From: a virus
Length of the DNA: 12,844 nucleotides
Reading direction: 5' to 3' (one strand)
Virus genome (UHGV): UHGV-0098265
The notes under the pieces were generated by a model, which was given only the letters and a program-made list of their open reading frames with translations, was not told the DNA's origin and searched no databases. Both the position numbers and the translations under genes were made by a program. This document shows, in pieces, positions 4,080 through 9,464 of this stretch (positions are counted from its first letter, which is position 1; the number at the start of each line of letters is the position of its first letter).

Positions 4080-4787
4080 ATGGTTCAGAATGAAAAAGTG
4101 CGCAAAGAATTCGCCCAGCGGCTAGCGCAAGCCTGTAAAGAAGCTGGTCTTGATGAACATGGTAGGGGAATGGCTATAGCCCGTGCCCTTTCTCTTTCGT
4201 CCAAAGGCGTTAGCAAATGGTTTAATGCTGAGTCTTTACCGCGTCAGGAAAAAATGAATGCGCTTGCGAAATTTCTAAACGTTGATGTTGTTTGGCTTCA
4301 GCACGGCACTTCGTTAAATGGAGCGAATGATGAAGATACTCTTTCATTTGTTGGCAAATTAAAAAAAGGGTTAGTGCGCGTGGTTGGTGAGGCAATTCTT
4401 GGTGTTGATGGTGCCATCGAGATGACCGAAGAACGCGATGGGTGGCTCAAGATTTATAGCGATGATCCAGATGCCTTTGGTCTTCGTGTGAAAGGAGACA
4501 GCATGTGGCCCAGAATAAAATCAGGAGAATATGTACTCATTGAGCCTAACACCAAAGTATTCCCGGGTGATGAGGTGTTTGTCAGAACCATCGAAGGACA
4601 CAACATGATCAAGATTCTTGGCTATGACAGAGATGGAGAATACCAATTTACAAGCATCAACCAGGACCACAGACCAATAACGTTGCCTTATCATCAAGTA
4701 GCAAAGGTGGAGTATGTGGCTGGTATTCTGAAGCAATCTCGCCATCTGGATGACATCGAGGCAAGGGAGTGGCTGAGAAATTATTAA
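4080..4787 (+). CDS. cI: CI-type prophage repressor (N-terminal HTH, C-terminal S24/LexA-like autopeptidase domain); non-lambda immunity specificity
   Basis: 235 aa. C-terminal GDSMWPRI motif (Ser nucleophile) plus a downstream Lys, typical of RecA-stimulated self-cleaving repressors; divergent from cro. Confidence 0.9.
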   Translation: MVQNEKVRKEFAQRLAQACKEAGLDEHGRGMAIARALSLSSKGVSKWFNAESLPRQEKMNALAKFLNVDVVWLQHGTSLNGANDEDTLSFVGKLKKGLVRVVGEAILGVDGAIEMTEERDGWLKIYSDDPDAFGLRVKGDSMWPRIKSGEYVLIEPNTKVFPGDEVFVRTIEGHNMIKILGYDRDGEYQFTSINQDHRPITLPYHQVAKVEYVAGILKQSRHLDDIEAREWLRNY

Positions 4788-4911
4788 TACCAATAGCATA
4801 GAGACGAAAATGCGACAGGTTTTAGGTACAAATCATAACCCTATCCACAAACAACGTTGTAAATATACACATAAGACTATTGTAAAAAAAGCTCTATCCC
4901 AGTAAATGCGG

Positions 4912-4940
4912 TTGCAAAATGGGTTGATCGAGCATATATA
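4912..4940 (+). promoter_or_regulatory. Candidate sigma70 promoter for the accessory cassette (TTGCAA-17-TATATA)
   Basis: Hexamers read by eye with 17-nt spacing, about 15 nt upstream of the GTG start at 4954. Confidence 0.3.
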
Positions 4941-4953
4941 AGGAGTATAGTTA

Positions 4954-5316
4954 GTGACCCAAGATGAAACGAATGAATATCTGAAAACCTTAGCATTGGT
5001 TCCAAGTGCAGAGGCCTCCGCAGAGGAGAAGCAGATATATAGCGTCAAAAAGGCTGTAATCGGTCTGATTGAATTTGTTACAACCAGTCTTGAAGAGCTT
5101 GGAATTGAAGGGTTGCATGAGTTAACAAACCCATCTCTTGACGAATTAGATGCAGAGCTAGAGAAACTTGACCAAAAAGCTGATGCAATCAATGAACTAA
5201 ACTTAAAGCAAATCATCATATTTGCACAGATTTTAATCAAAAACATAAGAGAAAAGAATCCTGATTTGTGCTCTGAGGGATCAAAACTACTCAAGAGTGC
5301 TAAATCGGGTCTTTGA
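4954..5316 (+). CDS. Hypothetical acidic helical protein, 120 aa, in the rex position downstream of cI
   Basis: GTG start preceded by TAAGGAG at 8-nt spacing; AT-rich relative to cI; no intrinsic terminator between cI and this gene; no homolog recognised. Confidence 0.7.
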   Translation: MTQDETNEYLKTLALVPSAEASAEEKQIYSVKKAVIGLIEFVTTSLEELGIEGLHELTNPSLDELDAELEKLDQKADAINELNLKQIIIFAQILIKNIREKNPDLCSEGSKLLKSAKSGL

Positions 5317-5339
5317 CACTTACAGAGCGGAGGATAAAC

Positions 5340-5462
5340 ATGTCTAGAACTGAACATATCAAAGATATGCTTAAAAGTGCGGATCGAATCAATCAGATTA
5401 TTGCTGAAATGAAGCAGAGAAAAGCAGAAATGCTAGCATCAAAGCTTCCAATGGCAGCATAA
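5340..5462 (+). CDS. Hypothetical 40-aa basic helical peptide (MSRTEHIKDMLKSADRINQIIAEMKQRKAEMLASKLPMAA)
   Basis: ATG preceded by GGAGGATAAACA; follows the 120-aa gene after a 23-nt gap; immediately followed by an intrinsic terminator. Below the ORF-track size cutoff. Confidence 0.55.
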   Translation: MSRTEHIKDMLKSADRINQIIAEMKQRKAEMLASKLPMAA

Positions 5463-6053: not shown

Positions 6054-6362
6054 ATGACGGTAATCGTGTACGGGAAATCAACATTTACAGGAAATGCCAA
6101 AACTCGCCGTCATGAGCGGCGCAGAAAGCTGGCTATCGAGCGTGATGCTATATGCAACATCATCGATTCGATCTTCGGTACAGACAGTGATGAACCTGTT
6201 CAGAAAGAACCGAGAAAGCGTTTAAGCCTTTCTGAAAAAGCAATATCACTCGGCAACATTCGTAACCAAAATACCGACGAATGCAATGGAAGCATTTGCC
6301 TGCCAAACGTAGCCATCTACGTGGCAGGCTATCGGAAATCAAAACAACTGACGGCGAGGTAA
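6054..6362 (+). CDS. N: N-type transcription antiterminator with a P22-type arginine-rich motif
   Basis: 102 aa. N-terminal GNAKTRRHERRRKLAIERD matches the P22 N boxB-binding peptide as recalled. GAGGA Shine-Dalgarno 7 nt upstream; positioned downstream of PL/nutL. Confidence 0.85.
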   Translation: MTVIVYGKSTFTGNAKTRRHERRRKLAIERDAICNIIDSIFGTDSDEPVQKEPRKRLSLSEKAISLGNIRNQNTDECNGSICLPNVAIYVAGYRKSKQLTAR

Positions 6363-6419
6363 TTATGGATATTTCATGTATTGAACAATTACTAATTGAG
6401 AAAACGAAAGAAATGCTTG

Positions 6420-6659
6420 ATGTATTGGACAAAAAAAATATCTGAGTTAAAAGATACACCCGCGACACAACTTATTCTCGAACGTAGTCGAAATAAATTC
6501 TTAGAGTTAAGCCCTGACGTTCAAAATATAGCATCTAAACTGCTGGCTACGTTGATTGAGAGGAATGCATTGTTATCGATGTCATCAGATGAACGAAAAA
6601 AACTGACGAACGAAGATGTTGCAACCATCCGCCAGGCATTCGAAATTTTGTTCTCTTAA
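6420..6659 (+). CDS. Hypothetical small protein; frame is interrupted upstream at an A8 tract (alternative: frameshifted about 97-aa gene starting at 6365)
   Basis: ORF track 6396..6659 begins at a TTG. An ATG at 6365 with a GAGGT Shine-Dalgarno opens a 26-codon frame that ends just after the A8 tract at 6431-6438; the long frame continues in +1. Confidence 0.45.
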   Translation: MYWTKKISELKDTPATQLILERSRNKFLELSPDVQNIASKLLATLIERNALLSMSSDERKKLTNEDVATIRQAFEILFS

Positions 6660-6824
6660 TTACTTACTGTTTATTCTGATAATCTCATCAAGAATTTTTT
6701 CATAAACAACTGTGCTTGGCTTTCCGTCAATGCCAGGGGCAAGATTACCGGCTCTGATAAGCTCAACAATAATCTGTTGAGCGGCTTCGTGTGGGTTGGT
6801 TTTGGGATTAACAATATCTGTCAT
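6660..6824 (-). CDS. Hypothetical 54-aa protein (MTDIVNPKTNPHEAAQQIIVELIRAG...), antisense to the PL operon
   Basis: Internal ATG at 6824 within track ORF 6660..6929, preceded by GAAGGG; two 14-bp direct repeats lie immediately upstream; its stop abuts the stop of the convergent plus-strand gene. Confidence 0.5.
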   Translation of the reverse strand: MTDIVNPKTNPHEAAQQIIVELIRAGNLAPGIDGKPSTVVYEKILDEIIRINSK

Positions 6825-6837
6825 AACAAAGCCCTTC

Positions 6838-6886
6838 TTTTGACTGTGGAAACAACAGTCTACCCATTTCCTTTGACTGTGGAAAG
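6838..6886. repeat. Two direct repeats of TTTGACTGTGGAAA spaced 35 bp apart, upstream of the minus-strand 54-aa gene
   Basis: Identical 14-mers at 6838-6851 and 6873-6886 read directly; each contains a TTGACT hexamer. Confidence 0.55.
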
Positions 6887-7075
6887 TGGAGGAACCACCG
6901 AGCCCGATGTGGTTAAAAGACAGGCACAATCTTTACTACCGCAATCCACTATTTAAGGTGATATACGGAAGAACAAGCAAACAAGATTCTCGTAGAACTA
7001 CTGCAAAAAGCCAGCAATGGAATAGACGCGGCTGTTTCATTTAGCCAGGCACAGATTCCTGATGTTGTTCATCAG

Positions 7076-7414
7076 TTGCTGCTATGGAATATGGTTGACA
7101 GTCTGATTAAAACATTAATAGCCATTCTAACAATCCCACTGGTTTTCTGGTTTATGAAGAAGCAGTGCCAAAGAGTTGAGACAGGTGAAATCGGTGATGA
7201 AGGATATTCATGGGAGAAAGGAAATCCCAAATACAGGCCGACAATGGTTTGGGATAGCAAAGGTGATATTAATCTTCTTATCGTGCCATTGGTTGGAGTT
7301 TTGACTCTGTGGGGGGATTTTATTATTGGTGCAGTAACCAATATGACTTGGTTAAAAATTTGGCTGGCCCCAAAGCTTTACCTTATCGAATATGCAGCAT
7401 CATTGGTTAATTAA
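7076..7414 (+). CDS. Small membrane protein with two hydrophobic segments (possible superinfection-exclusion SieB/Esc-like); start uncertain (TTG 7076, ATG 7091, or upstream)
   Basis: Hydrophobic segments LIKTLIAILTIPLVFWFM and INLLIVPLVGVLTLWGDFIIGAV. The frame is open back to 6962 with AAGGTG upstream but no canonical start codon. Confidence 0.55.
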   Translation: MLLWNMVDSLIKTLIAILTIPLVFWFMKKQCQRVETGEIGDEGYSWEKGNPKYRPTMVWDSKGDINLLIVPLVGVLTLWGDFIIGAVTNMTWLKIWLAPKLYLIEYAASLVN

Positions 7415-8329: not shown

Positions 8330-8356
8330 GCCCTCCAGTGTGAGGGCGATTTTTTA
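8330..8356 (+). terminator. Intrinsic terminator
   Basis: GCCCTC-cagtgt-GAGGGC hairpin followed by GATTTTTTAT. Confidence 0.65.
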
Positions 8357-8375
8357 TCTATGAGGATATGAACAG

Positions 8376-8744
8376 ATGTCAAACATCAAAAAATACATCA
8401 TTGATTACGACTGGAAAGCATCAATAGAAATTGAAATCGACCATGACGTAATGACAGAGGAAAAACTTCACCAGATTAATAATTTCTGGTCAGACTCTGA
8501 ATACCGACTCAATAAACACGGCTCTGTATTAAATGCTGTATTAATCATGCTGGCGCAACATGCTCTGCTTATAGCAATTTCAAGCGACTTAAATGCATAT
8601 GGTGTTGTGTGTGAGTTCGACTGGAATGATGGAAATGGTCAGGAAGGATGGCCTCCAATGGATGGTAGCGAAGGAATAAGAATTACCGATATCGATACAT
8701 CAGGAATATTTGATTCAGATGATATGACTATCAAAGCCGCCTGA
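8376..8744 (+). CDS. ea10: Ea10-like early protein (122 aa)
   Basis: Same length (369 nt) and same 72-nt spacing to cIII as lambda ea10; GAGGA Shine-Dalgarno. The assignment rests on position and size only, since the Ea10 sequence was not recalled. Confidence 0.6.
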   Translation: MSNIKKYIIDYDWKASIEIEIDHDVMTEEKLHQINNFWSDSEYRLNKHGSVLNAVLIMLAQHALLIAISSDLNAYGVVCEFDWNDGNGQEGWPPMDGSEGIRITDIDTSGIFDSDDMTIKAA

Positions 8745-8791: not shown

Positions 8792-8816
8792 GTTATGTAT
8801 AAATAAGGAGCACACC

Positions 8817-8981
8817 ATGCAATATGCCATTGCAGGGTGGCCTGTTGCTGGCTGCCCTTCCGAATCTTTACTTGAACGAATCACCCGTAAATTACGTGAC
8901 GGATGGAAACGCCTTATCGACATACTTAATCAGCCAGGAGTCCCAAAAAATGGATCAAACACTTATGGCTATCCAGACTAA
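8817..8981 (+). CDS. cIII: CIII (FtsH/HflB inhibitor that stabilises CII), lambda-identical
   Basis: 54 aa, [60 protein letters not shown] Shine-Dalgarno. Absent from the ORF track because it is short. Confidence 0.9.
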   Translation: MQYAIAGWPVAGCPSESLLERITRKLRDGWKRLIDILNQPGVPKNGSNTYGYPD

Positions 8982-9093: not shown

Positions 9094-9464
9094 CCCCCTT
9101 TCCTGTTTTCCTAATCAGCCCGGCATTTCGCGGGCGATATTTTCACAGCTATTTCAGGAGTTCAGCCATGAACGCTTATTACATTCAGGATCGTCTTGAG
9201 GCTCAGAGCTGGACGCGTCACTACCAGCAGCTCGCCCGTGAAGAGAAAGAGGCAGAACTGGCAGACGACATGGAAAAAAGCCTGCCCCAGCACCTGTTTG
9301 AATCGCTATGCATCGATCATTTGCAACGCCACGGGGCCAGCAAAAAAGCCATTACCCGTGCGTTTGATGACGATGTTGAGTTTCAGGAGCGCATGGCAGA
9401 ACACATCCGGTACATGGTTGAAACCATTGCTCACCACCAGGTTGATATTGATTCAGAGGTATAA
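9048..9464 (+). CDS. gam: Gam (RecBCD inhibitor), lambda-like; the short GamS form would start at ATG 9168
   Basis: 138 aa, [55 protein letters not shown]... matches lambda Gam as recalled. The internal ATG at 9168 is preceded by CAGGAG. Confidence 0.93.

Follow-up and report, generated by a model that had tools for sequence, protein, structure and literature searches.

A small gene that is read against an early phage operon and is preceded by direct repeats raises the question of what controls its expression and what part the repeats play in this control. We addressed this question in a 12,844-nt stretch of virus DNA (UHGV-0098265; hereafter the window), which comprises the immunity and early-left region of a lambdoid prophage (Table 1). 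PL reads on the plus strand, since the antiterminator gene N lies on that strand, and a match to the cIII thermoregulator of Rfam confirms the start region of cIII in the PL operon. The original prediction described a 54-aa ORF on the minus strand, convergent with the PL operon and sharing abutting stop codons with its neighbor, and both our coordinates and the NCBI annotation agree with this description. The ORF runs from an ATG at 6824-6822 to a stop codon at 6662-6660, which is the complement of TTA (6660-6662) and directly follows the TAA (6657-6659) of the plus-strand ORF. An identical stretch is present in E. coli 214-4, where the NCBI pipeline calls both convergent genes hypothetical proteins; WP_164997364.1 is the pipeline's annotation of the 54-aa ORF in the identical E. 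coli prophage.

Our preferred answer, to which we give a probability of about 0.6, is that the 54-aa gene inherited a control module of the sieB type: it would be expressed from the prophage by a PsieB-type promoter and controlled by an antisense RNA for which the repeats provide dual capture. Judged from its sequence, the locus is a variant of the known sieB/sas locus with a new cargo gene.

Table 1. Features of the window, with the basis on which each was placed.
Feature	Position	Strand	Basis
cro, cII, O, P	left of cI	minus	
cI	4080-4787	plus	S24/HTH domains
Antiterminator N	6054-6362	plus	Pfam N_peptide, E 2.8e-38
PL-direction partner gene	6365-6659	plus	convergent with the 54-aa gene
54-aa ORF MTDIVNPKTNPHEAAQQIIVELIRAGNLAPGIDGKPSTVVYEKILDEIIRINSK, cargo gene of the sieB slot	6660-6824	minus	ORF list and NCBI annotation
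Weak candidate extended -10 of the antisense RNA, TGTCATAAC	6819-6827	plus	by eye, by analogy with P22
Shine-Dalgarno GAAGGG	6832-6837	minus	7 nt before the ATG, read from the sequence
Downstream repeat copy TTTCCACAGTCAAA	6839-6852	minus	predicted first mRNA bases, by alignment with P22 PsieB
Predicted -10 TAGACT	6857-6862 (6862 to 6857)	minus	aligns with TAAACT at the 3' end of P22 PsieB
Upstream repeat copy	6872-6885	minus	TTTCCA (6885 to 6880) is the predicted -35
sieB-upstream homology block	6892-6960		95-99% identity to lambda and P22-like phages
H-type pseudoknot (candidate)	6893-6925	plus (antisense, sas-like)	compensatory variants, arm test and pair counts
Rfam Lambda_thermo (cIII thermoregulator)	8804-8862	plus	88.5 bits

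We compared the surroundings of the gene with those of sieB. In lambda (J53 lysogen), in P22-like phages and in Rac, sieB lies opposite PL and is convergent with N or with other early-left genes. In the lambda lysogen J53, the stop codon of sieB abuts that of N, and the sequence matching 6892-6960 falls between sieB and ral. The P22 equivalent of this block is the 3' part of sas, an antisense RNA, together with the sequence that follows; the block presents 93-99% identity to the DNA upstream of sieB in E. coli genomes, P22-like phages and other lambdoid phage records. The adjacent segment (6825-6891) can only be aligned to sieB leaders, without close similarity. A 581-bp query containing the gene, its partner ORF and the leader (6380-6960) was then compared with 5426 complete genomes of E. 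coli. Some part of it was matched in 617 genomes (about 11%), and among the matches listed most cover only the 3' end (6892-6960). At least 80% of the query was matched in six complete genomes, which makes the 54-aa gene a rare one, and the spacer variant of the window's leader was found in 12 of the 5426 genomes. Because its position matches that of sieB in lambda, P22 and Rac and the DNA upstream is homologous, we place the 54-aa gene in the sieB slot of a lambdoid prophage, where it evidently replaces sieB. The original prediction of autonomous control, of the kind known for exclusion genes, gains partial support from this slot and from the homology to the PsieB region in the P22-pbi record. 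In K-12, sieB and ydaF were reported as a convergent pair with overlapping transcription (PMC12288877); sieB is not mentioned in the supplements of the 3'-end mapping paper.

The repeats themselves are well defined. The 14-mer TTTGACTGTGGAAA is found twice without mismatch, and the similarity extends to 18 nt with 17 identical positions (6835-6852 and 6868-6885). We estimate that an exact 14-mer would recur within ~50 bp about 0.002 times in 12.8 kb, so a chance origin is unlikely. The two 14-bp copies had been described as identical and 35 bp apart; their identity is exact, and the spacing is 33 bp from start to start, with a gap of 19 bp. At the aligned position, ACCCCTACAG is present in two copies at a distance of 34 bp in the sieB leaders of P22, lambda and Rac, and the repeat of sieB leaders has the form (A)CCCCTACAG. 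Two direct repeats 33-34 bp apart flank a TAnnnT -10 in the window as they do in the sieB-type module.

The conservation of the repeats was examined in further loci. A pattern scan detected the exact double repeat of the window in 32 IMG/VR contigs, with a spacer of 19 nt in every case. Loci were also sampled independently of the repeats. With the 84-aa cargo protein as the sole query, the leader was present in all ten full-length loci; L291, which at 70% protein identity diverges most among these, presents the same T-to-A change in both copies (TTTCCACAGACAAA and ATTCCACAGACATT). The 94-aa cargo protein recovered six loci, four of which carry the leader and two of which (53% protein identity) have an unrelated upstream context. 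With P22-type SieB as the query, both copies are kept in 76 of 78 loci. Differences of one base between copies were observed in L295 and L296, both loci of the 94-aa cargo, and the copies are imperfect in L295, L279 and Rac (13/14 or 9/10 positions). The spacer between the copies varies freely except for the -10. Scans behind the commonest pseudoknot block for other leader types added one window-type locus (L279), and a scan of genome contigs with the bare 14-mer was swamped by chance matches in unrelated phyla. The original prediction named two findings that together would speak against it: that no minus-strand transcript starts upstream of 6824, and that the repeats are a recombination scar shared with unrelated contexts. 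Half of this concerns the repeats, which are indeed common to other gene contexts; they are not a scar, however, because their functional position, upstream of the cargo gene of the slot, is the same in every case.

A promoter can be predicted by alignment with P22. The record of P22-pbi (AF527608) annotates "P sieB" as TGTACCCCTACAGCGAGAAATCGGATAAACT, a sequence that extends from within the upstream repeat to 38 nt before the ATG of SieB. In the window, the predicted -35 (TTTCCA, the opening six bases of the upstream repeat) lies 17 bp upstream of the predicted -10 (TAGACT). A TAnnnT hexamer occupies the aligned -10 position in 66 of 67 distinct elements; in the remaining element the script chose TCTAAT, a hexamer overlapping TAATAT. 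The variants of this hexamer include TATAAT, TAAAAT, TAACAT, TACCAT, TAGCAT and TAGGAT, and those of the window's type are TAGACT or TACTCT. The distance from the -10 to the downstream repeat is nearly constant: it measures 4 nt in elements of the window's type and 7 nt in most sieB-type elements, with 8 or 9 nt in a few others. Transcription is predicted to start at about 6850 (range 6847-6853), at the beginning of the downstream repeat, which leaves a predicted leader of ~26 nt that is unstructured (-3.6 kcal/mol; z +0.86). A simple promoter scan of the window returned nothing at threshold, since TTTCCA and TAGACT together match only eight of the 12 consensus positions. Homology and conservation, from which we infer its use, predict that a sigma-70 promoter of the PsieB type drives the 54-aa gene, whose expression from the prophage would not depend on PL. 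The suggestion that the upstream repeats resemble operators probably does not hold, as the alignment with P22 has the upstream copy overlapping the -35 and the downstream copy starting the transcript. CsrA sites and alternative hairpins in a long sense leader had been entertained as well and were dropped, given that PsieB of P22 and the invariant -10 put the start at the downstream repeat.

The opposite strand is expected to template an antisense RNA. Small-RNA sequencing of P22 infection defined a sas RNA of 127 nt (PMC13397905). This RNA is the exact complement of the sequence from the AUG of SieB through both repeats and two helices described below, and on through the conserved block. It corresponds to the plus strand of 130 bp of the window, from which we infer that this strand may likewise template an antisense RNA of the sas type. 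The candidate -10 of such an RNA overlaps the start codon of the 54-aa gene and lacks the T at -7; its P22 analogue (TGCCACCAT) ends 6 nt upstream of the 5' end of sas determined by RNA-seq. We also considered the TTGACT present on the plus strand of each repeat as an antisense -35 and rejected it: it has no usable -10 at 15-18 bp and is absent from the repeats of the sieB type. As a separate observation, seven of the 12 cargo families with the window's leader type start with ATGNCA, which reads TGNCAT on the antisense strand; this is suggestive of an extended -10-like TGn lying over the start codon, most of the hexamers lacking the -7 T.

Beyond the repeats, the antisense strand can form two interleaved helices, S1 (6893-6898 with 6909-6914) and S2 (6902-6906 with 6921-6925), separated by the loops L1 (CGA), L2 (AT) and L3 (AAAAGA). 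On the antisense strand, S2 of the window contains a C6905/A6922 mismatch; read on the sense strand, the same position would give a U/G pair. Both helices present compensatory variants across elements: AACCAC/GUGGUU, ACCCGC/GCGGGU, CCCUG/CAGGG, ACCUCA/UGAGGU, CCCUC/GAGGG and CGGGA/UCCCG for S1, and GCCUG/CAGGC, GCCGGG/CCCGGC, GCCCGG/CCGGGC, GCCUGA/UCAGGC and ACCUG/CAGGU for S2. Cognate arms pair better than arms taken from different elements, which supports S1 and S2. Pair counts, made for the GCCUG subfamily only on a model-fitted alignment of 34 sequences that had been fitted to S1, gave 95.9% of cells paired against 26-42% in slid controls. Covariation was 0.110 relative to 0.044 in shuffles, and none of the 500 shuffles reached 0.110. 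In this set of 34 sequences, three pairs of S1 present changes on both sides and S2 is invariant; S2 covaries between subfamilies. The covariance models used (R1 and R2) gave no useful E-values for the GCCGGG and GCCCGG subfamilies. Across elements, L1 of the antisense strand measures 0-3 nt and L3 is A-rich and measures 5-9 nt. We assign the pseudoknot to the antisense strand because the loop lengths fit H-type geometry only there, whereas on the sense strand a loop of 1-3 nt must cross a helix of 5-6 bp. The helices would also be transcribed in the antisense direction only, because the predicted sense start lies downstream of them. These covarying helices point to a conserved H-type pseudoknot at the 3' end of the sas-like RNA.

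Other descriptions of the structure were less productive. Rfam 15 yielded no credible match at E <= 10 for either positions 6500-7200 or an element of the P22 type, and consensus structures from RNAalifold were uninformative. In minimum-free-energy folds, the two repeat copies take different structural roles. In some sieB-type loci the repeats seemed, convincingly to the eye, to form the loops of two covarying hairpins, a model that was abandoned after cognate and non-cognate arms were compared (4.31 against 4.34 for hairpin B; hairpin A was weak). We noted in addition that 6831-6844 and 6912-6925 form an inverted repeat with 79% complementarity, so that the ribosome-binding region, or its antisense complement, can pair with the A/U-rich pseudoknot loop and an arm of S2; similar A-rich/U-rich complementarity is seen in other variants and may be due to chance. 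In several loci (L013, L010, L022, L026 and L031), a hairpin resembling a bidirectional terminator (AAAAAAGCCGC...GCGGCTTT) is located 12-20 nt past S2, such that the conserved module begins right after a terminator in these loci.

The leader is not tied to one gene. Behind the window's repeat we found cargo families of 54/57, 60, 67-71, 80, 84, 92/94 and 95 aa, so that no fewer than seven unrelated small genes share the leader with its repeats. None of these families was assigned by Pfam or PADLOC, and their PHROG matches are without known function. At least three leader types were seen: the sieB type, the window's type and a single-hairpin type with zinc-ribbon cargo. The matches of the window to P22-like phages end at 6892, and cargo-specific sequence begins just past the downstream repeat. 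New to our knowledge are a pseudoknot with covarying helices, the use of the control region as a module for different cargo, and the two leader types other than that of sieB.

Several loci present rearranged or multiple cassettes. L210 (3786-3830 and 4593-4637) and L222 (~8355-8404 and 9211-9255) each carry two cassettes headed by a pseudoknot, in the same orientation. The second cassette is of the third leader type, with a single hairpin (UUCUUGG/CCAAGAA or AUCCUUACA/UGUAAGGAU) and without the double repeat; a TATTCT or TATCCT hexamer directly follows the helices, and a small zinc-ribbon protein comes next. L292 (540-620) is a deletion variant in which the first repeat with its GGAAA is followed directly by the final 26 codons of the gene for the 84-aa cargo, and it resembles the outcome of recombination within the leader.

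Under the preferred reading, RNA polymerase would use the -35 in the upstream repeat and the -10 between the repeats, and would start at the downstream repeat. The downstream repeat would then form the 5' end of the mRNA, from which the upstream repeat would be absent. An antisense RNA, made from its own promoter or by read-through from PL during infection or induction, would cover the start codon, the ribosome-binding region and both repeats before ending in the pseudoknot, and its pairing with the 5' end of the mRNA would block translation. Such an antisense RNA would hold two complements of the first 10-14 nt of the mRNA, that is, two capture sites, and this hypothesis would explain why the copies stay alike and change together, both between leader types and in L291. 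The arm comparison, which did not favor hairpins presenting the copies as loops, and the energy-minimized folds, which treat the copies differently, speak against dual capture, and the preferred reading as a whole is also weakened by the S2 mismatch, the candidate antisense -10 without its -7 T and the imperfect copies of some loci. In P22, sas reportedly blocks the synthesis of SieB and allows that of Esc, as attributed to Ranade and Poteete (1993).

The same repeats could be accounted for in other ways. One is that they were duplicated and then retained because each copy separately serves as -35 or as 5' UTR, or because they act as a recombination linker, their likeness having no function. 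The mosaic junctions at the element are in keeping with this reading, as the P22-like matches stop at 6892 and cargo sequence follows the downstream repeat, and so are the L292 deletion, which joins the first repeat to the 3' part of a cargo gene, and the one-base differences that occur at times between copies. The copies nevertheless differ in concert between leader types and took the same substitution in L291, while the spacer between them drifts freely apart from the -10, and we regard this explanation as unlikely. Quite unlikely, in our opinion, is that the repeats are two DNA operators, over the -35 and the start site, by which a host or phage protein controls the promoter, as a repressor or as an activator. 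Their distance of 33-34 bp, about three helical turns, and their location would suit this arrangement, and the partner ORF is faintly similar to the HTH-protein family phrog_517 (E 0.0045). However, the cargo genes that follow this repeat are of at least seven unrelated kinds, and their partner ORFs are unrelated as well, for which reason a cognate regulator encoded by the phage is not apparent; the two leader types would require two different factors, and no candidate binding protein was found.

The structured element might instead act in cis as a riboswitch-like or protein-binding leader of the sense transcript. Several G/U pairs, including the U/G pair of S2 in the window, are tolerated only on the sense strand, and 6925-6912 could engage in long-range pairing with the ribosome-binding region (6844-6831). 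This is very improbable, given that the annotated P22 promoter and the invariant -10 put the start downstream of the helices, that the loops are sterically poor (1-3 nt would have to cross S1) and that in several loci the element is directly preceded by terminators. We give still less credit to the possibilities that the repeats constitute the RNA of a type III toxin-antitoxin-like system or that the ORF is not a real gene. The presence of two direct repeats of ~33 nt upstream of a small ORF recalls type III systems, but the repetition covers just 14-18 of the 33 nt, the copies are separated by a promoter -10, and no member of the diverse set of cargo genes resembles ToxN. A non-coding ORF is difficult to reconcile with the reading frame kept at 39-56% protein identity behind a good ribosome-binding site.

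The comparison with P22 defines what was kept and what was exchanged. The sieB/esc/sas locus occupies the same slot, is convergent with an N homologue and has the homologous block upstream, as in the window; both have two direct repeats flanking a TAnnnT -10, and the P22 antisense template over the ribosome-binding site, the repeats and the two interleaved helices has its counterpart in the window. In contrast, the repeat differs in sequence in both copies (TTTCCACAGTCAAA in the window and ACCCCTACAG in P22). The P22 cargo is the membrane protein SieB (PF14163), whereas the cargo of the window is a predicted helical hairpin of 54 aa without an internal Esc start. Unlike P22, the window has an additional gene in the PL direction between N and the cargo, and the sas promoter of P22 resides within the sieB coding sequence, which is missing from the window. 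The sieB loci of lambda and Rac have the same helices and repeats upstream as the window and differ from it as P22 does; the lambda leader is longer.

The proposed control also resembles better-known antisense systems. RNA-OUT/RNA-IN of IS10, OOP/cII of lambda and RNA I/II of ColE1 are cis-antisense controls, and in IS10 a loop of the antisense RNA is the first part to pair with the 5' end of the mRNA. As we propose for the window, the antisense RNA of controls of the IS10 type is complementary to the 5' end and the ribosome-binding site of the mRNA. Unlike these, the predicted antisense RNA of the window would contain the complement of its target twice, and its predicted 3' end is a pseudoknot rather than a plain terminator hairpin. 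With phage morons and lysogenic-conversion cassettes, the locus shares an exchangeable cargo and a gene, presumably with a promoter of its own, that lies within the lytic operon and opposes it. In contrast to morons, the predicted promoter of the window's type sits inside a putative antisense RNA gene, and two cassettes can be present in one early-left region (L210 and L222).

We further analyzed the 54-aa gene and its product. The ORF is, on the evidence of its conservation, a real small gene: divergent homologues of 57 and 58 aa retain the ORF behind the same leader, with protein identity of 39-56% and a good ribosome-binding site, and AAGGA or AAGGAG occupies the place of the Shine-Dalgarno sequence in other loci with the window's leader. 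A homology search on the product, which had been proposed as a check, yielded a match to PHROG 27767 (E 9.6e-10), a family without known function, and no family of Pfam or PADLOC. Relatives are few and fall in three near-identical clusters; an exhaustive HMMER search of 1.8 billion cluster representatives recovered one real relative (58 aa) and a spurious repeat protein. An N-terminal helix motif, AAxQxxxELxxAG, is common to the cargo proteins of 54, 57 and 60 aa and is possibly present in those of 67-71 aa. The SieB profile (PF14163) was not matched by the 54-aa protein, relative to an E-value of 1.5e-31 for SieB of Rac. AlphaFold2 modeled a two-helix hairpin (pLDDT 83), and the product is therefore predicted to be a soluble two-helix hairpin and not a membrane protein like SieB. 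Foldseek found nothing below E 1 in the PDB with this model, and a profile search against PDB sequences gave no credible match.

The convergent partner was examined as well. In relatives (L016, L017 and L025) it is a single ORF of 97 aa. Alignment indicates that a +1 insertion in a run of eight A (6431-6438) split it in the window into 6365-6445, a 26-aa fragment, and 6420-6659, a 79-aa ORF restarting at the ATG at 6420; the lesion consists of this insertion plus a T-to-A change (GACATAAAAATATC to GACAAAAAAAATATC). The partner adjoins the 54-aa gene in seven of seven loci, even where N varies (47-100% identity). Other cargo genes also face small convergent ORFs on the PL side, some of which are mutually homologous and some not. 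Based on the slot and on this constant PL-side partner, that is, on position and co-occurrence only, our guess is that the 54-aa protein is an exclusion or defense factor expressed in the lysogen and that the early-gene partner protects the phage itself. It is conceivable, if doubtful, that this extends to a general class of plug-in cassettes in lambdoid early-left regions, in which the promoter of a gene expressed in the lysogen would lie inside an antisense gene that ends in a conserved, hitherto uncatalogued H-type pseudoknot and provides dual capture, and in which the cargo proteins of 54-95 aa would form, with their convergent PL-side partners, new pairs of exclusion and self-immunity factors.

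Work on the sieB/sas system has essentially been confined to P22, and the control region of this system now appears as a conserved and portable module. About 11% of complete E. coli genomes contain a control region of the sieB type, which would drive sieB and a set of small genes. Its placement against the lytic operon suits expression in the lysogen and shut-off during the lytic cycle, and the cargo genes constitute a list of candidate exclusion or defense factors expressed from prophages. The arrangement, a promoter inside an antisense RNA gene with a 3' pseudoknot, is a compact natural design that is directly testable. For the window itself the practical yield is modest, as the gene is rare and the prophage looks partly decayed.

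Some further features of the prophage were noted. The next gene of the PL operon (6965-7414, plus strand) encodes a membrane protein of PHROG 3054; it presents ACG at 6965, where P22-like phages and lambda have ATG, and an in-frame TGA lies just 5' of this codon, so the start codon has apparently been lost. The twin prophage of E. coli 214-4 contains an IS66 element. Together with the frameshift of the partner and the S2 mismatch, the lost start codon and this insertion suggest that the prophage is decaying. In the interval between cI and PL (4833-5357), the place of rexAB in lambda, we observed a minus-strand ORF of 174 aa for which Pfam and PHROGs gave no match and which overlaps a plus-strand ORF of 120 aa; the latter is the one annotated in the twin genome.
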